A stretch of 41,660 nt of DNA from a virus (IMGVR_UViG_2778261202_000006:1-41660); one strand, 5' to 3'; shown: positions 1 through 24,058, counted from the stretch's first letter. The notes: generated by a model not told the origin, from the sequence alone. Numbers and translations: made by a program.

Positions 1-1158
1 ATGCTCACCGTTAAGCAGATTGAAGCAGCAAAGCCGAAAGAAAAACCATACCGCCTACTCGATGGTAATGGCCTGTATCTTTATGTCCCTGTATCAGGGA
101 AAAAGGTATGGCAGCTTCGCTACAAGATTGACGGTAAGGAGAAAATCCTGACCGTCGGAAAATATCCGCTTATGACTTTGCAGGAAGCAAGGGATAAGGC
201 ATGGACTGCGAGGAAAGACATCTCGGTTGGCATCGATCCGGTAAAGGCGAAAAAGGCTTCGTCTAACAACAATTCATTTAGTGCGATTTACAAGGAATGG
301 CACGAGCACAAGAAGCAAGTCTGGTCTGTAGGGTATGCGACTGAACTTGCAAAAATGTTTGATGACGACATTTTACCTATCATCGGCGGCCTTGAAATTC
401 AGGATATTGAGCCGATGCAACTGCTGGAAGTAATCCGCAGATTTGAAGATCGCGGTGCAATGGAGCGAGCCAACAAAGCCCGCAGAAGATGCGGCGAGGT
501 TTTCCGTTACGCTATTGTCACCGGAAGGGCTAAATATAACCCGGCACCTGACCTTGCAGATGCCATGAAAGGATACCGCAAGAAGAACTTCCCGTTTCTT
601 CCTGCAGACCAGATCCCGGCATTCAACAAAGCACTAGCAACATTTTCAGGAAGTATCGTATCGCTTATTGCGACTAAAGTTTTACGCTACACAGCCCTCA
701 GAACAAAAGAGCTTCGTTCCATGCTATGGAAGAACGTCGATTTTGAAAACAGGATTATCACCATCGACGCCAGTGTGATGAAGGGCCGCAAGATTCATGT
801 TGTTCCTATGTCAGACCAGGTGGTTGAACTTCTCACTGCGCTAAGCTCCATCACTAAACCAGTATCAGAGTTTGTTTTTGCCGGGCGCAACGATAAGAAG
901 AAGCCAATCTGCGAGAACGCGGTATTGCTTGTGATCAAACAAATCGGCTATGAGGGTCTGGAAAGCGGTCACGGATTCAGGCATGAATTCAGCACGATTA
1001 TGAACGAGCACGAATGGCCTGCTGACGCTATTGAAGTGCAACTTGCACATGCCAACGGCGGATCTGTGCGCGGAATTTACAACCATGCTCAGTATCTCGA
1101 TAAACGCAGAGAAATGATGCAATGGTGGGCGGACTGGATTGATGAAAAGGTGGAGTGA
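1..1158 (+). CDS. intS: Tyrosine integrase, P4-type (DUF4102-like N-terminal arm-binding region plus C-terminal catalytic domain)
   Basis: 385-aa ORF; N-terminus LTVKQIEAAKPKEKPYRLLDGNGLYL typical of P4-family integrases; C-terminal H..R..H..Y-type region (HGFRHEF, HANGG..RGIYNH); sits at prophage end. Confidence 0.85.
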   Translation: MLTVKQIEAAKPKEKPYRLLDGNGLYLYVPVSGKKVWQLRYKIDGKEKILTVGKYPLMTLQEARDKAWTARKDISVGIDPVKAKKASSNNNSFSAIYKEWHEHKKQVWSVGYATELAKMFDDDILPIIGGLEIQDIEPMQLLEVIRRFEDRGAMERANKARRRCGEVFRYAIVTGRAKYNPAPDLADAMKGYRKKNFPFLPADQIPAFNKALATFSGSIVSLIATKVLRYTALRTKELRSMLWKNVDFENRIITIDASVMKGRKIHVVPMSDQVVELLTALSSITKPVSEFVFAGRNDKKKPICENAVLLVIKQIGYEGLESGHGFRHEFSTIMNEHEWPADAIEVQLAHANGGSVRGIYNHAQYLDKRREMMQWWADWIDEKVE

Positions 1159-12167: not shown

Positions 12168-12667
12168 TATTCGCTCCCGTTATCACAAGGTTCCTTTCGG
12201 TGGAAGTAATTCCAACCGTTCCACTTCGCCAACTGGTTTCCACTGCCAACAGGCATACGGTTTGGATAACCGGACTTACATTTAGCGGCTTTCGCCCTAT
12301 CCATTGCAGACAGTTTGACGAGTCGCTCTTTCCCGTATCTGGCAGTGGTTATAAGTTTTGCAGACGCTTCCAGCGCATAATCTGGAGCAATGCGGCAGGC
12401 AAGGTTGAAAATGACGGCATTGATAGCGTTATTTGATAAACCGTGCTCATCGCCCGGATCCGGAGAAACATCTGCATCAGCAAAAATGTAGCCAACGTTG
12501 ATACCAGGTGACGCATCACCGCCAAGCCATTCAGCCATCATCATTTCAAGGTCGTTGACGCCGTCTTCCATAGACTGCGGTTCGACATCTGTTAACGTGG
12601 CATTTGATGCCACACCGAGCTTACGTAATGCCGCAAGGACTAAATCACCCTTCGTTGTCAGGTTCAT
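12167..12667 (-). CDS. gp4: Tail accessory factor gp4-like (peptidoglycan hydrolase family)
   Basis: From ATG 12667 begins [33 protein letters not shown], matching P22 gp4 N-terminus; six-frame ORF starts earlier at TTG 12727. Confidence 0.85.
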
Positions 12668-13232
12668 CTGCTGCCGCCTTAGGTTTTCGACCAGGCTTTT
12701 TACGCTGTTTTTCTTCTGGCTCTGCAATAGCCGGACGCAAACTCAGGAGTCGTCCAAGAACATCATTTGCTTCATGACCATCCCACTCTTTCCCGAACTC
12801 AAGCTCAGTACCTTCAGGAAGGAACTCGATTTCTTCAACAGGTAGGTGATAAGTGATTTCGCCTTCTGGAGTGGTGATACCAGCAATGATCCAGCCATCC
12901 CACTCTTCACCGTCACTGTGTTTGCGAGACCACCACGAAAGCTCAGCGTAAGCATGCATCAGCGATGAGAAGAGGCGCACTCGGTGAGCGTAAAGCTCGT
13001 TAAAAGTGTGATAACCGTCGGACACTTCGCCCATATCAACTGGGGAAGTTTCACCTCCGCCAACACTCCCAATTTGATCACCAACAAGAGGATCATCAGG
13101 AACATCGTCAGGGTGCTTATACCAGCCATTTGCTAAGTGCACAGCTACATCATCAGGATCAACGGTTTTCGTTTTCAGCTTGCGTCCCCATATTTTGGTA
13201 TCTCCGCCAGCCTGAAAAATCATTACGCTCAT
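12645..13232 (-). CDS. Hypothetical strongly acidic protein inserted between coat and gp4 genes
   Basis: ATG 13232 preceded by SD GGAGAT and by an intrinsic terminator after the coat gene; 195 aa, rich in D/E with repeated WDG motifs and basic C-terminal tail; six-frame ORF extends upstream into coat gene in another frame. Confidence 0.5.
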
Positions 13233-13240
13233 TGGTATCT

Positions 13241-13268
13241 CCAATAGAAAAGGGAGCAGAAGCTCCCT
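13241..13268 (-). terminator. Intrinsic terminator downstream of coat gene
   Basis: Hairpin GGGAGC-ttct-GCTCCC followed by T-tract on the minus strand, between coat stop and next start. Confidence 0.6.
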
Positions 13269-13275
13269 CTGGTTA

Positions 13276-14571
13276 TCACGCGGTCTGGTTAGGCAGACCA
13301 ACACCAATTGCCTCTGGTCGTACAGCACATGCTGAATACCACACAGCAATACGGCACTTACCAGACAGAGTGTTGATATCACCCTGCGTTGCGAAGATGC
13401 CGTTAACACCAATACCAGGAATGCTGAAGGAAGACGTTTTCATGCCAGCAAACAGTTCATGGGTTACCGGGATCGGCTGAGACAGCAGGCGGATTGAGTC
13501 ATCAGCCCAGAACACGTTAGCGGTGGTTGTTGCCACGTTCAGAACGTTTACCGGAGTGGTATCAGCAAGAGAGGTGTTTACGTTAGCGTAAGCCTTCTCT
13601 TCTTTTGTCAGTGACGCGTCATCCAGTGCAATCGGCTTCGGCGTGATTTCGATGTGAGTACCATCGATCACACGGGTGATTGAGAAAGTAGCATCATCAG
13701 TCAGCACGTTCTTCGCCATCTGAGACAGGAATTTCACACCAGTGAAGCTGATTTTGTCGCCGCGCTTAAACCCGGTGGTGGAGGATACGGTCACCGTTGC
13801 AACACGGTTGTCGACGTTCTCTTTGTTACCATCGGTATCAAGAGTGTATGCCTGCGGCTTAAACTTCTGCGCACCAGAAACAGTTACACCAGTAGCGGTT
13901 GACTTGGTAACTGCCGGAAGTTTCGGTGAGCGAAGAATTTCATCAAAGCCAGCAATCTGACGCTGAATAGTACCGTTGCGATACGCTTCTTCAGGAACGC
14001 GACCGAAGATGTCACCATCTACCAGGTTGCGGCCTGCTTTGCGGTAATCGTCAGGGTTCAGGAAGTAACTGATGCCCATATCGCGGTTTAGCTCACGGGA
14101 GAACATCAGGCGCTCTGCATCAGACACAAAATCCCAGCCAGACAGGCCAGTAGATGGACCAATTGCGCGGGTATCGTGAACAACAAGCGAGCCCATTTCA
14201 GTTGCCTGTTTGGCAATTGCTGACTCAATGTTATTCGCCAGTTTTTTGGCGGATGCCTGGATGCGGCGACGGTAAGAACGCTCATCACGCAGGTCATCTG
14301 CACGAAGCTCGAAGAAATCGTTATCCGGATCGCCCATGTTGCATTTCACGGAGAGTTCCAGAATCCCGGTTGCGTTGCCAGTTAAATCCCAGCCAGTCTG
14401 GGTTGGCGCTTCCTGCTCAACAGGCATCCACACGGTGTTGCTTGAACGCTGCATGGATTCTGCCGGAGGGGTGTATTTTGTCACTTTGGACGCCATTGGC
14501 GTCAGGTTCTGGACGGTTTCGATGATTTCATCCAGAGCATACGTGACCAGTTGACCTTCATTTAATGCCAT
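13276..14571 (-). CDS. gp5: Major coat protein, P22 gp5-like
   Basis: 431 aa; N-terminus [27 protein letters not shown] and overall similarity to P22 coat protein. Confidence 0.95.
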
Positions 14572-15482
14572 TATCGAATTCCTTTATTCAGTTGCGCCTT
14601 GAGCTTGCGGTACGTCTCTACATCCCCTTTGTTTGCTGCCGCCTCCATCTGCTTTTCAATCGCAGAGATATTTGCAGCAACAGCATGTCCCTGAATGGGT
14701 TCATCAGGTAACGGGGCTTCTGAAACAGGCTTGGCTCGAGGCTTGAGAGTTAAACGTTCTGACAGTCGAGTGAGTTCAATCAGTGCGGATTGCCCGTCCA
14801 TCGCCAGCAACTGGCGTGTTTTCTCAGGATTAGCACCAAGGTGATACATGATAGCAGCGGATTTCTCCGGGAAGAGGCGCATGATGTCGGCACCGACTGC
14901 TGGCGGCACCAGTTGCATGAATGCATCCTCTTTCTCCTGATAGTCAGGGATATTGAGCTTTTCCGCTGCGTCGTAGTGCTTACGGGCTGCCTCGACGTAT
15001 TGCGCTGATTGCTGGGTGAACTCCTGAGTTTTGCGACCCTGCTCGGCGACAGCCTGGCTTCGTGCGTCCATAGCCTTGATCTGCCATTCACTGTTTGCCT
15101 GCTGGAAGGCAGCCAGTGCGCGGCTCTGGTCATAGTCGTACTTAGCCAGTGCGTCTTCGGAAAGATAATCGTTAGGGTCTGGTTGTTTTGGTAACTCAGG
15201 GTTCACCCGCAGGTGCTCCGGCAACTCTCCACGCTTAACCGCTTCCATCTGCTGCTCAAGCTCACGCTGGCGTTTGCGTTCGATGCGGCGACGGGCAAAT
15301 TCAGCATTAGTTGCCGGGTCTTGTTTTGGTTTCTCATCGTCTTTCAGGACAATCTCGAAGCCTTCTTCCTGACCTGCGTTGTCGTTGGCATTATCGACAA
15401 CTAAGCCATCAGCAGATGCCGCTGCATGATTGCCGGGCAGGGTTAATTCTTCAGAAGCCTGAATGTCGGTGGTTTGGTCCAT
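14571..15482 (-). CDS. gp8: Scaffolding protein, P22 gp8-like
   Basis: 303 aa, acidic helical protein directly upstream of coat gene. Confidence 0.9.
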
Positions 15483-15495
15483 GATTAACTCTCTC

Positions 15496-17664
15496 TTATT
15501 GAGGTGTCTCGGCTACTCCGCCGGAGGGGATTTGAACTTGACGCATAAGATTCGCGAAATCCATGCGTTGTGAATGAGTCTGGTCTGCATCTTTAAGAAG
15601 CAGCTCAGCGTTAGCACGAGCATCTTTGCTGCGCTGTTGCTGGAATTGACCTACGAGCTTGAGGTACTCACGCAGTTCTGCCTGCTTGTCGAGGTCCATA
15701 TTGTTGAAGATTTCTGCAATCTTCGCGGCGTTGAGTTGGTTTTGGGCTTCAACCTTGGCGGCTTCAACCTGAATCTGCGCCTGTTGGTTCTCTGCCTTGA
15801 GCAATTCAGCCTGACCTTGCAGAAGGATACCCTGCGCCTGAATTTGCTCTGCTGATGGCTGCTGCGGCTGTTGTTGTGCCTGCTGTACCATCTCCATTTC
15901 TTCAGGTGTTTCTGGTTTCTTCAGCCCCATCATCACCAGTTGCTTGTTAGCGTACTCTCGCATCATCTCGACGCCTTTACCGTCAAGCAGCGTGAAGTAT
16001 TGCAGCATCAGCATCTGGAACTCTGGAGTACCTTGCGGAACCTTGGTGAGCAACTCCTGAATCTCTGCGCGGTTCTGTTCCTTCATACTCTGGAAGGATG
16101 GTCCAACGTCTGTATAGCACTCATAGCGACCGCGAATGTCGTTGAGTGTGACCACATTACCGGACTGGTAATCGACAACTTGCGCGTAGAGTTGAACGTC
16201 TTTCTCGCTACCATCTTCAAGTGTCAGCGTTACATGACGAGGAACGTCATAAATATCGTTGACCATTGAGGCATAAATCTCGCCATCACGTCGCATTGCG
16301 GTAGCCAGGTTATCCTGAAACACGTATGTCTCAAGGTCTGCCCGCATGTTCAGTTGATTGACGGTATCGAAAGCGACCTGACTGTTTGCTGCCTGCGCAT
16401 CCACGCCAAGACTAGCCACCTCTTTCACTGCGTTGGTGGCAGCCTCAAGCATGTAAGCGTTGGCTTGCGGCACTTCAGGGTTTTCCATGTAGGAGATTGG
16501 ACCAATCGGAAGGTCGTTACCGTTTTCATCGGTCTTGTTCTGCAGATAGTACGGATAGTCATCATTTCCACCGTACATGTATTCGTAGCCTTCGATTTGC
16601 TCAGGGAAGAAGGTAGGTTTCTTCTTCGGTGAACGAGCAACAATATCGGCGTTGAACGACATGATCATGTTACGAAGGCGCTGACCGTCTTTCGTCAGCC
16701 TTACCACTCCTTCGTAGCACTCCTTGTCACCAGCGAATGACCATTCGCCATACACTGGAACGATTGGAATATGCTCTCCGGCTATCTTCTCGCGATCTTT
16801 CAGTATCTGCGTGCAGGTGATGATCGACTTATACACACGCCGACGCTTCACCTTGCGCTCTGCTACCTTAATGAATCCACGATTAGCCAGGTCGTCGATG
16901 ACGTCTTTGATATCCTGCTGGTAATAGCTGACCGGCTCACCTGTCAGCGGGTCGCGGTAGATGAAGACCTTCTCCTTCTTCTCTTCTACCTCGTAATACT
17001 CAGCGACATAGACGACATCATTCGATACCCACGGGAACAGCCATGTATCGTTCGGATTCTGGAAAGATGGCAAGGTGTCCGGATCAATACCGTAATCCTC
17101 TGCGAACTCTTTCCAGCCATTGCGCGACAAGGCGTTAATCACCGTACAGTGCTTAGCGTCGCTCTTATCCATCTGCTTGCTGTTGGCGTCCCATATGACG
17201 TGTGAGCAGGCTTCATGAATTGGCAGGCGTCGAATTACCTGATTGTTGCTTGTTGGGTCGTTGTCTTCGTACTGTGTGACCAGACGCCATGCACCAACGC
17301 CGGACTCTATCTGCTCACGAACGCCAACGTTAACGGCAATCTTTGCCGTGTTATGGCGCATATCGGTACGATACATTCCCATCAACACATCGGCAGCATC
17401 AGGATTAGCGCCGTCTTTTGGTCGGAAGAGAACGTCGATAGGGTTCCGGCGCATCTCTGCGACCAGTTTCCTGACCACCGGGCGAACAACATCGAATTGT
17501 CCGCGATATTGCAGGGTAGTGTAGTTTGATAGCCAGTCATCCCATTGGCTTATGCGACTGAAGTATAAATCGTTAGAAGCTTCTGTTCTCGCCTCGTCGG
17601 AAGACATCCAATCAACATCGAATGCTTGCAGTATCTTATTTAATCGCTCTGCGTTGTCAGTCAT
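15496..17664 (-). CDS. gp1: Portal protein, P22 gp1-like
   Basis: 722 aa; strong similarity to P22 portal along the length (..[40 protein letters not shown]..). Confidence 0.95.
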
Positions 17665-17714
17665 AACTTTACCGTGATAAAATCAATGGGACAACTTCAA
17701 CAGGAGATTCTATT

Positions 17715-18215
17715 GTGAGCCATCCATCTATAGAAGATATAAGGAAAAATTTCACATACGATGCTGAAACCGGAATTTTGTACGCGGCTAATCGCACAAG
17801 GAGGACAGACCTTAACGGCAAGCCAGTTGGGTGCCAGCATGGAAACGGATACCTTGATGTAAGGCTTGGTAAAAAACTGTACTACGTGCACAGAATTTGT
17901 TTTGCGCACTACTATGGTTACTGGCCCGAAGCAGTAGATCACATAAACGGAAACCGTGCTGATAACCGCATCTGTAATCTTAGAGATGCCAATAAGCAGT
18001 TGAACGGACTAAACCGTGGCATGGATTGCGACAATTCAACTGGATACAAAGGAGTTTCCTATCGCAAGGACACAAATAACTACATGTGGCAATTTGTGGT
18101 AGAAGGCAAGAAATACACAAAAAGCGGATTCGCTACAGCATTAGATGCATACAAGCATAAAGTAGCATTTATTAACGCTCTGAATTCCGCTGCCTCTGAA
18201 TTTCTCAAGCCGTAA
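17715..18215 (+). CDS. HNH homing endonuclease (HNH_3 plus AP2-like DNA-binding domain)
   Basis: 166 aa; motif HINGNRADNRICNLR and GYKGVSYRK; GTG start with AGGAG SD; opposite strand, wedged between portal and large terminase genes. Confidence 0.8.
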   Translation: MSHPSIEDIRKNFTYDAETGILYAANRTRRTDLNGKPVGCQHGNGYLDVRLGKKLYYVHRICFAHYYGYWPEAVDHINGNRADNRICNLRDANKQLNGLNRGMDCDNSTGYKGVSYRKDTNNYMWQFVVEGKKYTKSGFATALDAYKHKVAFINALNSAASEFLKP

Positions 18216-18224
18216 CAACAGTAT

Positions 18225-19727
18225 CTATCTTGTTGACCGTGCGATGGGCCTGATTGGGGCTGGTATCTTTTTCTCTTTTGGTTTTTTGATGTCGCGCATC
18301 ATTTTGGCGAAGCGGCGCATCATGTATGCATAGCGAACGGCTGAGAGAACGTCGTCGTTAAGCTTGACGATTTTCCCGTTTTCATCACGGTGATAGAGGC
18401 GGAACTCCTCAAAGAATGGCTCACAGGTGTTGAATACTTTGAAGCGACCATCAAGCATCATGTCGCGCAATTCAGTGATTCCAGGCTCAACAGCATTACC
18501 GCCATCAGGCCATGTCGCATGATCCTGCAACATCATAAATCCAGCGTCTGCATACTGCCCTTTGAGCTGCTCACCGCCGCCCTTCTCGTGCTGGTTTCCG
18601 TCATGAGGCCATGCTGTTGGCACTTTATGCGCCCATGATTTAACAGCCCCCCATGCCTGAACGGCTGTTTTTTCTTTCGCCTTCCACACGCGTGAAACGT
18701 AGATTGTGTCTGCGTCCTTATCCCACCAAAGCTGAACCTGCGCTTGTGGGTGATCCCATCCGAAATCCATCCCGCCAATTACGTAGAAGTGATCAGGACA
18801 CTCGAACGGCTGGCACTTAATCGTCTCTTCCGGTATCTGGAAGATTCGACCGCTACCCATCGTAGGAATACCGCGAGCACGCGCCTCTCTCTCGTGCTCG
18901 GGATAGGATGCGATGATTTGCTCTTTCTGCTCGTCGGTGTAGTGCTCTGCGTCATAGATGGTCATGTTGACCACTTTCTGCGACTTGCTGGGATTCTTCA
19001 GGAACTTGGTAACAACGTCAGACATCCCCATCAGCGGGGTAAACGTCAGAATTGAGAATTGCCCGTATTTGTTGGTACGGGTAAGACCTTCGCCATAAAT
19101 GCTGTATGGTGGCTCTTCGTCAAACCACACGCCGTGGATTGTGTCACCCTGCCAGCGAGCACGGCCTTGCGAGTATGGCTTGAAGTAGCAGATTGAAATG
19201 CCATCTTCAACGCCATCAGCCGTGTGATGCTTAACCAGAAGATGATCAACAAGGTTCGGAAAGAAAGGAGACTTCTTCCAGCTAATGATGTCTTCTTTCG
19301 GTATGGAACCGTAGCCAGGCTCATCATTCTCTTCGATACGACCGCACAGGATGCGTTGAGTCGTTTTGGTTACCGTCTCGTTTGTCTCGCCGCCAATCCA
19401 GAAGACAACAGGCTCATAGAAACGCTTACCTTTCCACTCACCGCCATATTTACCATCATCCGGATAGCCTTTTGTTCCCGGATAACGCCCTGTAAGGTGA
19501 AACGCGACTTCAGCAGCACCAGTAAATGACTTACCAAGCTGGTTACCAGCCATAAAACATCGCTCTGGATAGTCATGCCCGGCGTCGATGAACTCACGCT
19601 GTTTGCTGTATGGCGTAAATTCATATAGCAGGTGTGTGTTCCGGTAGTTCTCTTCTTCTTCGAGTAGCTCGAGCAACTCGATTTGCTCTTCGTCGCTCAG
19701 GTTATCAAGAATCGTGTCCAGTTCCAC
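18225..19727 (-). CDS. gp2: Terminase large subunit, P22 gp2-like
   Basis: 500 aa; N-terminus [25 protein letters not shown] and ATPase/nuclease regions as in P22 TerL. Confidence 0.95.
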
Positions 19728-20193
19728 GGTTGAATAGCTCCTTGATACGAGAGCGTCGCTTATCGCGATCTCCCTTATCAGGTGTCACGTCTTCAACTTG
19801 CGACTGCTCTTTGAGGCCCAAATCACGGGCGATGATGTTAGCGTTGAGAAGGTCAGCGGCTGCGCCAGAGAATTTCTGATCGTAGATGATGTCTTCCGCT
19901 CGTGATGTGACGTCAGAAAAACCTTCCATTGACCGGAAGGTTCCCCATGTTTGCCTGGTGATATCAAGGAAGGTACACAATCCTGAAATAGTCATGGCTC
20001 GCATCTTAGGGACATTAGCCTTAATTATTTCTCCCTGATATGAAAATACCTTACCCTCCCATAGCGGGTTATCATCAGCCCACTCGAAGTATTCACAACA
20101 AGCAGCCCACAGCGCATCAGGCGATTCGAATTTAGGGTTTCGCCCATGACTACTGCGGGCCTCCCAGAATCGGTTGCCCTTTGGTGCTGCCAT
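19705..20193 (-). CDS. gp3: Terminase small subunit, P22 gp3-like
   Basis: Begins [25 protein letters not shown] from ATG 20193 (ORF has an ATG two codons upstream at 20199); overlaps start of TerL. Confidence 0.9.
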
Positions 20194-20397
20194 ATTCATC
20201 TCACTTAATTGTCATTTCAGGTTGAGAACTCTTTTGCACCTTCAATCAATGACTGCTTCAGCAATTCGAGTGTGCCAATCGCCTCACACAAACTGATTTC
20301 ACCATCGTAATCATGAATAACGCTTTCCAGCCGCTCGTATAGCTCTTGAGTAATTGGGAATTTCTTCTCCTTACCCAAATTGATTACGCGGCTCACA

Positions 20398-21040: not shown

Positions 21041-21121
21041 ATCAACCTCGTCTAGTTGTTCGTCATAGATTCAGTGGCTGGCGGTGACGATTCCGCTTTT
21101 CGGGAGCTACCCTAGCCACTG
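21041..21121 (-). promoter_or_regulatory. Conserved structured 5' element, copy A (three-stem fold upstream of cargo A)
   Basis: Outer stem CAGTGGCT/AGCCACTG (21072-21079 with 21114-21121), inner stem GCGG/CCGC around loop TGACGATT, third small hairpin; shares architecture and covarying stems with copy at 23975..24058. Confidence 0.55.
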
Positions 21122-21259
21122 TTTTATTCTATCCGATGTCTTTCCATCAGTCCGCCACCACAAAGAATCTTTTTTGCCATAAGGCAGGAGGTTCATCTTT
21201 CAGTGGCTGCCAGTGTTATTTCCCCACTTTCTGGCTTGGGTTGTTTCGCTGTACTACCG

Positions 21260-21802
21260 TTAATTGGTGAGTCCGGGGATTACGGTTTGCCCGTGCTGTT
21301 CAAGACGTTCAATTCTCGCCAGTAGCTGAGGCTTCTTAATTTTTCCCCAGCGATTGAGCAGGCGGCCTGACATGCTGGCAACATCCTTCTCTTTCATGTA
21401 CTCCAGCATTACGGCATTTCTCTCTTCTTCAAATTGACGATGACCAACCTGAAGCATGGCGTACATCCAGTTGAATGCGTTGATGTAAGCAATTTTGATA
21501 CGCATTGCTTCTTTTTTGGTGTAGGACATAACCAAAAGCATCAACCCATCCTTGCGGAGACGGTAGAATTTTTGCGGCTTACCATTCTGTAACTCATTGT
21601 TTTTATAGCAAAGCTCAAAGTTGAGCTTTGTATCAAACTCAGGAGGGCAAGCTTCTATGGTTCGTTCAATGTCACGAACCACGTTCTTCGGCAGCTTTCC
21701 AAATGCTTTTGCCACCATAAAAGAATCTGTAACCGGATCGTTGTTTGCTACAAAAATTAGGTCTCTGAAATCTATATCGTTAACAACGGTTGGGTAGTTC
21801 AT
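21260..21802 (-). CDS. rha: Rha-family phage regulatory protein (antirepressor-like)
   Basis: From ATG 21802: ..FMVAKAFGKLPKNVVRDIER...KFYRLRKDGLMLLVMSYTKKEAMRIKIAYINAFNWM.. resembles Phage_pRha family; six-frame ORF extends further upstream to 22048. Confidence 0.7.
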   Translation of the reverse strand: MNYPTVVNDIDFRDLIFVANNDPVTDSFMVAKAFGKLPKNVVRDIERTIEACPPEFDTKLNFELCYKNNELQNGKPQKFYRLRKDGLMLLVMSYTKKEAMRIKIAYINAFNWMYAMLQVGHRQFEEERNAVMLEYMKEKDVASMSGRLLNRWGKIKKPQLLARIERLEQHGQTVIPGLTN

Positions 21803-21947
21803 TGCGTCTTTACCTTTTAGAAAGATGAGCCTGTTCGCACAGAAAAGCCGTCCCCGAGATGGTCGCCACCATATACGGCAATTCTCAGGCTCAGCTTTCT
21901 GAAAGACTCGGGGTTTATATGCGCTGCGATGCGCGTTTACTGAGGAC

Positions 21948-21975
21948 ACAAAAAAGCCCCGCGAATGCGAGGCTA
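21948..21975 (-). terminator. Intrinsic terminator downstream of Rz
   Basis: Minus-sense GCCUCGC-AUUC-GCGGGGC hairpin followed by UUUUUU. Confidence 0.55.
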
Positions 21976-22147
21976 AATCCTGGTATTTGTAATGACTGGC
22001 TCTTATCTCAACGCAGCCCCTTACCGCGCGCAAAATGCTCAATATCAAGCATCAGCAATGAGATGTTTAATCTGGATTCACTCCAGAAGTGAGCACCACC
22101 CTGTCTACAGAGCCAGATGTGAAGGATGATGAGTAAAATTATCGCTA

Positions 22148-23974: not shown

Positions 23975-24058
23975 AACAACCTCGTCTAGTTGCTCGTCTA
24001 TGTTCGCTATGGCAGGCAGTGACGATACTGCTTTTCGACTGGCCGGTCTAGCCATAGC
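23975..24058 (-). promoter_or_regulatory. Conserved structured 5' element, copy B
   Basis: Outer stem GCTATGGC/GCCATAGC (24006-24013 with 24051-24058), inner stem GCAG/CTGC around loop TGACGATA, third hairpin GACTGG/CCGGTC; compensatory changes relative to copy A. Confidence 0.55.

Follow-up and report, generated by a model that had tools for sequence, protein, structure and literature searches.

A probable free-standing HNH homing-endonuclease cassette at the terminase–portal junction of a P22-like prophage

Introduction

The gene for the large terminase (terL) and the portal gene abut or overlap by one base in phages P22, L, Dewey and IME10, which agrees with the adjacency that a preliminary description of the present locus had stated for P22. 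In the prophage analysed here they are separated by several hundred base pairs, and the question that this locus raises is what occupies the gap and how it came to be there. The DNA is a stretch of 41,660 nucleotides of viral origin (IMGVR_UViG_2778261202_000006:1-41660), which we refer to as the window. The preliminary description offered two readings of the gap: a free-standing homing endonuclease that had invaded the junction, or an HNH partner for the terminase. HNH genes reportedly lie beside the terminase genes of HK97-like phages, and HK97 gp74 stimulates terminase cutting in some cos phages. Free-standing homing endonuclease genes (HEGs) of phages, such as the seg and mob genes of T4, are found between essential genes and co-convert flanking DNA (PMC2988022, PMC2790892), and HEGs mark recombination boundaries near essential genes (PMC10448857). 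Our comparisons indicate that the inserted unit extends over 17548..18236, which is larger than the HEG alone, and that it is very probably a free-standing HNH homing-endonuclease cassette inserted at the terL–portal junction of a P22-like prophage.

Results

Setting and content of the interval

The window is an integrated P22-like (Lederbergvirus-type) prophage, with an integrase at 1..1158 and a LacY-type host permease at its right end; it also encodes an acyltransferase, a tailspike with the P22 head-binding domain and a tail needle. The interval 17665..18224 is the exact 560-bp gap from the portal ATG (reverse complement of 17662-17664) to the terL stop (reverse complement of 18225-18227). 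The portal gene (15496..17664, minus strand, 722 aa) is of the P22 type (Pfam P22_portal, E=1e-162). TerL (18225..19727, minus strand, 500 aa) matches Terminase_6N (E=1e-47) and Terminase_6C (E=7e-28), with both its ATPase and its RNaseH-like nuclease domain intact, and a small terminase of the gp3 type, assigned by Pfam, lies at 19705..20199 on the same strand.

The sole real ORF of the interval, the HEG at 17715..18215 on the plus strand (166 aa, GTG start, stop included), runs antisense to the portal, TerL and small terminase genes and is preceded by AGGAG at 17702-17706, 8 nt 5' of its start. The ORF, the AGGAG and the Pfam assignments of the neighbours all agree with the earlier reading of a 166-aa opposite-strand gene with its own Shine-Dalgarno sequence between portal and TerL. 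The ORF is wholly intergenic and has, besides the Shine-Dalgarno sequence, its own promoter-like site; an Rfam search of the window returned no intron family.

Protein family and fold

Searched against Pfam, the HEG protein matches HNH_3 (PF13392) over residues 56-98 (E=2e-13) with 50.1 bits against a curated cut-off of 24.8 bits, in keeping with the HNH_3 type proposed earlier, and it matches PHROG_99 ‘HNH endonuclease’ with E=4.7e-50. I-HmuI (PDB 1U3E) is the sole solved relative by sequence (E=0.015). In this alignment D75, H76, N88 and N97 of the HEG protein fall on D74, H75, N87 and N96 of I-HmuI, which we take to be the metal ligands, general base and structural Asn of that enzyme. All four are invariant in an alignment of 68 homologues, as are H59, N78, D83, N84, R85, L89, R90 and N100. 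An AlphaFold2 model of the protein (pLDDT 94.3) likewise has 1U3E as its best Foldseek match in the PDB (probability 1.0, E=1.3e-3, 107 aligned columns), and the predicted N-terminal beta-sheet region and HNH beta-beta-alpha-metal core resemble those of I-HmuI.

The C-terminal part has PF00847 (AP2) as its best sequence match, yet this falls below threshold (15.8 bits against a cut-off of 33.3 bits, E=0.017). The model places strands at 114-117, 122-129 and 132-139 and a helix at 142-155 in this part, Foldseek returns weak AP2 matches to 3IGM and 7ET5 (E=0.04-0.7), and many homologues carry both the PF00847 and the HNH_3 annotation. An AP2-like label for approximately residues 110-155 is therefore reasonable, resting mainly on the predicted fold. 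NCBIfam holds no model for the protein and PADLOC gave a weak generic ‘homing endonuclease’ match alone (E=1e-4), so these searches do not tie the protein to a known defence system.

Expression signals

A promoter-like site for the HEG lies at 17654..17683 on the plus strand and has 10 of 12 consensus matches plus TG. Its -35 box, TTGTCA at 17654-17659, overlies codons 2-4 of the portal gene, which is read from the opposite strand, and a spacer of 18 nt leads to the extended -10 TGATAAAAT (TG-n-TAAAAT) at 17675-17683. The element CCGTGATAAAAT together with the following (A/G)TGGGA is conserved in all 12 HEG-carrying loci, whose HNH genes are 63-76% identical in nucleotide sequence, and a TTGnnn (TTGtnn) box in the portal start is conserved in all HEG-carrying loci as well. 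The HEG leader at 17665..17714 (plus strand), compared across the 12 loci, contains the AGGAG. Read on the minus strand, this leader gives the portal gene a different 5' flank, with a conserved ATCACGG 7 nt before the ATG; in cassette carriers it replaces the stop-start coupling of terL and portal found in HEG-less phages.

A pattern scan also picked out a weak terminator-like hairpin followed by a T-run at 18247..18271 (plus strand), just 3' of the HEG and inside the 3' end of terL, which is a possible end of the HEG transcript. The count of terminator-like hairpins in the region was not above the expectation from shuffled sequence, so we treat such hairpins as weak. The phage L record (MW013502, L006:1811-1848, corresponding to approximately 18234-18271 of the window) has a ‘terminator’ annotated inside the 3' end of terL, opposite the late genes, although phage L has no HEG there.

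Presence and absence at the junction

Six E. coli phage genomes, Dewey, IME10, Louie and CurroJimenez among them, are 96.6-97.7% identical to the window in the flanks and lack the insert; their terL stop directly abuts the portal ATG, and HEG-less junctions read TAAATG or ATAATG. The junction type was found in 215 of 5,426 complete E. coli genomes, and a sensitive search of this set recovered the 560-bp insert in two, that is, at 2 of the 215 junctions (~1%). Both carriers encode WP_024623278.1, which differs from the window protein by one residue (A92T). Among the phage records with this portal type (n~114), only Salmonella phage SEN22 has the gene at this site. The comparison of junctions among relatives that the preliminary description had proposed thus reveals a presence/absence polymorphism in two independent backgrounds. 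That description had named missing catalytic residues and a ubiquitous gene as findings that would speak against a mobile endonuclease, and the opposite of both was found.

Extent of the cassette and the rewritten portal start

Compared with Dewey, the portal gene of the window is 96-98% identical down to nt 118 and then 56% identical over nt 1-117. This tract, the AT-rich portal codons 1-39 at 17548..17664 (minus strand), makes up the left part of the cassette. No relation to Dewey is seen across the insert; on the right, identity returns to 98% at 18237, 12 nt inside terL, and the cassette end at 18216..18236 consists of a 9-nt spacer and the last 12 nt of terL including the stop. This end differs from HEG-less relatives, and the TerL C-terminus accordingly reads ...IARSTR* in the window and ...IARRT* in those relatives. 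Over the 39 rewritten codons the protein is conserved at ~2/3 to 3/4 of positions and synonymous sites are saturated; the remainder of the portal gene has dS 0.11 and dN 0.001. GC content is 42-43% in the cassette versus 50.5% in the flanks, and 43% in portal codons 1-39 versus 50-56% in HEG-less versions, a composition that marks the cassette as evidently foreign.

The rewritten 117-nt portal start occurs only in the two HEG carriers among the 5,426 E. coli genomes, and HEG-linked portal starts are at most 72% identical to any HEG-less version. For some pairs of HEG-carrying loci the portal starts are more alike than the portal bodies (91% vs 74% for L012 and L017; 80% vs 71% for SEN22 and L017), and the starts of SEN22 and L012/L017 are 80-81% identical. 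The window and SEN22, however, share just 58% in this tract, so the rewritten portal start does not simply follow the HEG, and the grouping of HEG-linked portal starts suggested by these comparisons is a partial result. Portal nt 1-117 are variable even among HEG-less phages (52-87% identity); the divergent tract may thus partly reflect a mosaic hot spot rather than selection for resistance. The rewritten start is a candidate site of cleavage resistance and probably protects the carrier. In a search for the target, defined as alignment columns fixed in HEG-less portal starts and absent from HEG carriers, only column 84 qualified (G vs A), which is too little to define a cleavage site.

A second case at the same site

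The SEN22 homologue (gp3, ‘homing endonuclease’, ALF02424.1; genome KT630648) is also 166 aa long, 69% identical in amino acid sequence, and has the same position and orientation between terL and portal. Its authors noted the insertion in 2017, so the phenomenon was already known for one phage. The SEN22 flanks are 96-97% identical to the HEG-less phages L, ST64T, epsilon34 and P22; its terL is identical to that of phage L up to the stop codon, and its divergent portal tract, measured against L, ends at the same 117-nt boundary as in the window, right before CAATGGGATGACTGGCT (SQWDDWL). SEN22 shares with the window both the conserved promoter-like element and a 117-nt rewritten portal start. 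The two cases differ in host (S. enterica subsp. diarizonae for SEN22), in the start codon of the gene (ATG in SEN22, GTG in the window) and in the terL/portal background, which is ~73-75% identical in nucleotide sequence between them, and synonymous sites are saturated between the two HEGs.

Site-specific clade, movement and selection

In a large protein database, nine clusters of relatives reach 66-99% identity, and the next relatives are at 44% or less. For all nine clusters (12 loci), the protein database and contig look-ups for each protein place the gene between terL and a portal gene of the P22 type, antisense to both; a peptide-pattern scan of one genome per species yielded no confirmed relative of the HNH protein. 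The hosts of the clade include E. coli, Salmonella houtenae and Obesumbacterium proteus, and further members come from metagenomic contigs. The adjoining small terminase belongs to three families (GP3_package, Sf6_terminase and Terminase_2), and the portal gene is the constant neighbour across at least five portal/terminase backgrounds. What the enzyme recognises is therefore presumably the junction or the portal start, and not terL.

Two observations bear on movement. A single mismatch occurs in the ~800 bp that loci L007 and L008 have in common, a tract that begins at portal nt ~190, spans the HNH gene and takes in 60 nt of terL. Outside this tract identity is ~93% between their portals and ~58% between their terL genes, which represent different terminase types. 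The same pattern could also come from an ordinary exchange of modules if its breakpoint fell at the junction. Among the three E. coli prophages that carry the HEG, divergence is 0.3-0.9% in the cassette and 2.1-2.8% in the portal and terL flanks (Fisher p~0.01), and the cassette is thus younger than its flanks. The free-standing homing endonuclease proposed in the preliminary description is supported by this age difference together with the presence/absence polymorphism, the rarity, the site-specificity and the intact set of HNH residues.

All 12 HEG copies are full length. Pairwise among clade members pN is 0.08-0.22; synonymous sites are saturated (pS~0.8), and we therefore report that pN is much smaller than pS in place of a dN/dS figure. 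Full-length ORFs and low pN indicate that the protein has been kept functional for a long time.

Other variable slots

Other positions in this phage group also hold HNH genes or vary in content. A second HNH_3 gene, 31-41% identical to the HEG at the terL–portal junction, lies antisense between coat and scaffold genes at L004:16756-17271, L011:296-844 and L017:279-821. The window is without it, its coat gene (13276..14571) abutting the scaffold gene (14571..15482). With the terL–portal site, this makes at least two endonuclease insertion sites in the morphogenetic operon of the group. A further HNH gene, of 195 aa and unrelated in sequence, is present at L004:13529-14254 (E. coli 19451123) beside a fragment that is annotated as the pseudogene of a truncated ‘packaged DNA stabilization protein’; judging by its appearance, the gene was inserted there with duplication or splitting of the gp10 start. 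An unrelated HNH gene also stands between a Rad52-family recombinase gene and ssb at L005:37882-38349, in a prophage of E. coli 23CRST032.

Within the window, an ORF with a WDGH domain (12645-13412, minus strand; Pfam E=2e-39) sits between a gp4-like tail accessory gene and the coat gene and, as listed, overlaps both; hypothetical genes of other sizes take its place in related prophages, so that this position, too, looks like a variable slot. A regulator- or antirepressor-like gene with Rha and ORF11CD3 domains (21260-22048, minus strand) separates the small terminase gene from the lysis genes; some of the related loci have it (L009, L016) and others lack it. Two copies of the Rfam int-alpA motif, both above the gathering threshold, were found on the minus strand at 21060-21122 (42.0 bits) and 23992-24058 (43.7 bits), one of them lying upstream of the genes for packaging and the second close to the lysis and late-regulator region.

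Discussion

Taken as a homing cassette, 17548..18236 would work as follows. The 166-aa enzyme, in which an HNH core similar to that of I-HmuI is joined to an AP2-like domain for DNA binding, would be expressed from a sigma-70-type promoter of its own that faces against the late operon. When a cassette-free related phage enters the same cell, by mixed infection or by superinfection of a lysogen, its DNA would be nicked or cut near the terL stop and portal start, and recombinational repair would copy the HEG from the cassette-bearing genome. The first 39 portal codons would be copied along with it; their synonymous rewriting probably removes the target, and they include the -35 box. Conversion would end where homology resumes: in the portal gene at CAATGGGATGACTGGCT, the nearest strongly conserved sequence, and in the other direction right at the terL terminus. 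What we infer in this scheme is that the enzyme cleaves DNA, where its target lies, whether it makes a nick or a double-strand break, that the rewritten portal start is resistant and that the promoter is active. I-HmuI nicks intron-containing and intron-less DNA alike, so divergence of the target would not necessarily be required. An efficient drive would be expected to exceed a frequency of ~1%; the low value could stem from weak activity, from a cost to fitness or from scarce opportunities for co-infection.

The closest structural parallel is I-HmuI of Bacillus phage SPO1, a nicking enzyme in which, as in the HEG protein, a beta-sheet DNA-binding region at the N-terminus precedes the HNH core. 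Identity is 27% over the 107 aligned columns, centred on the N-terminal and HNH parts. I-HmuI is encoded in a group I intron, whereas the window HEG is free-standing and intergenic, and the C-terminal DNA-binding part of I-HmuI is helical, which by description sets it apart from the AP2-like C-terminal part of the HEG protein. The nearest relatives outside the clade (36-44% aa identity over >90% of the length) are HNH_3/AP2 endonucleases of T5-like (Demerecviridae) and other enterobacterial phages, such as ‘hegJ, putative H-N-H-endonuclease P-TflX’. They belong to PHROG_99 and have the same two-domain layout; they differ in insertion sites and host phages, and a genome often holds several copies.

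In its genomic behaviour the locus resembles the free-standing HEGs of T-even phages (T4 MobE, an HNH enzyme, and SegA-G, GIY-YIG enzymes). These too are intergenic between conserved or essential genes, have their own expression signals, are present or absent among close relatives and co-convert flanking DNA, and their carriers, like the window, show sequence differences near the insertion site (PMC2988022, PMC2790892). In contrast to the temperate P22-like prophage studied here, the T-even hosts are virulent myoviruses, and the Seg enzymes belong to a different protein family. Unlike the T-even HEGs, moreover, the window gene is antisense to its host operon, and part of its promoter lies inside the rewritten start of an essential neighbouring gene.

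Several alternatives to homing, or additions to it, have to be weighed. One is that the cassette is a two-part unit, the HEG plus a rewritten portal start that acts as resistant target, carrier of the -35 box and portal translation start, and that this unit serves the lysogen as a weapon; we regard this as doubtful. If it were true, the prophage would make the nuclease in order to nick or cut HEG-less P22-like phages at their terL–portal junction when they superinfect. The cassette would then arm one temperate phage against another and go beyond a selfish element, and such a role would explain strong purifying selection alongside rarity.

A related proposal keeps the HEG mainly as a means of excluding HEG-less P22-like phages that superinfect or co-infect: its promoter would be active in the lysogen or at an early stage of infection, the competitor would be damaged at an essential junction, and homing would be secondary. 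It overlaps the homing explanation, with which it is compatible, and adds to it rather than replacing it. Purifying selection at this locus is strong and lasting, with none of the 12 loci degenerate, where a simple course of invasion followed by decay predicts otherwise; the sigma-70-type promoter-like site is conserved, independent of the late operon and antisense to it; the probable target lies in essential genes; and exclusion of a competitor's markers by HEGs is documented in T-even phages (PMC2988022). Continued homing, however, explains the purifying selection equally well, the PADLOC match is weak and generic (E=1e-4), and a frequency of ~1% speaks against a large benefit. As the main role of the gene we consider exclusion unlikely.

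The cassette might also be an inactive relic or passenger, brought in by a single illegitimate recombination event where two mosaic segments meet and no longer moving itself. A relic would accommodate the general variability of P22-like phages at the terL–portal border and over portal nt 1-117, the high mosaicism of Lederbergvirus genomes (PMC11990801) and the rarity of the cassette. Against this, the catalytic residues are invariant and the ORFs intact despite saturated synonymous sites in the clade, the same site is held in at least five portal/terminase backgrounds, the cassette is significantly younger than its flanks, and one mismatch in ~800 bp separates copies in divergent backgrounds. 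A relic is thus very unlikely.

The terminase partner that the preliminary description had offered as its second option fares worst. HK97 gp74-type HNH-motif proteins are encoded beside terminase and portal genes, as here. Those proteins are described as sharing the orientation of these genes, as occurring across their whole phage group and as needed to cleave cos, whereas the window gene is on the opposite strand, is absent from ~99% of relatives (present in ~1%), belongs to another HNH family and comes from a phage that packages by the headful (pac) route. A gp74-like accessory role in packaging, for which the one argument is position beside terL and portal, is scarcely credible and effectively refuted by viable relatives that lack the gene: plaque-forming phages with ~97% identical terL and portal do without it (Dewey, Louie and CurroJimenez are isolated, plaque-forming phages; PMC11990801), as do 213 of the 215 E. 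coli junctions, and further against it the gene is antisense to the packaging operon with its own promoter-like site, it encodes an HNH_3 and AP2-like protein of I-HmuI fold instead of a small PF01844-type HNH, TerL retains its own RNaseH-like nuclease domain, and the clade occurs beside three unrelated small-terminase types.

We therefore favour the homing cassette. What is new here is modest, namely the exact cassette boundaries and the co-inherited portal start that bears part of the promoter. A relative at this site had already been published; the finding leaves what is known of such elements unchanged and is a well-supported but ordinary example. For annotation it means that the gene should be called a free-standing homing endonuclease and not a packaging component, and that the real insertion unit, 17548..18236, takes in the first 39 portal codons. 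Matched empty sites exist in easily handled phages (Dewey, IME10, L and P22), so homing and the mapping of the target are directly testable. For the temperate P22-like phages the locus provides a clean, datable natural case of a HEG marking a recombination boundary inside the packaging module.
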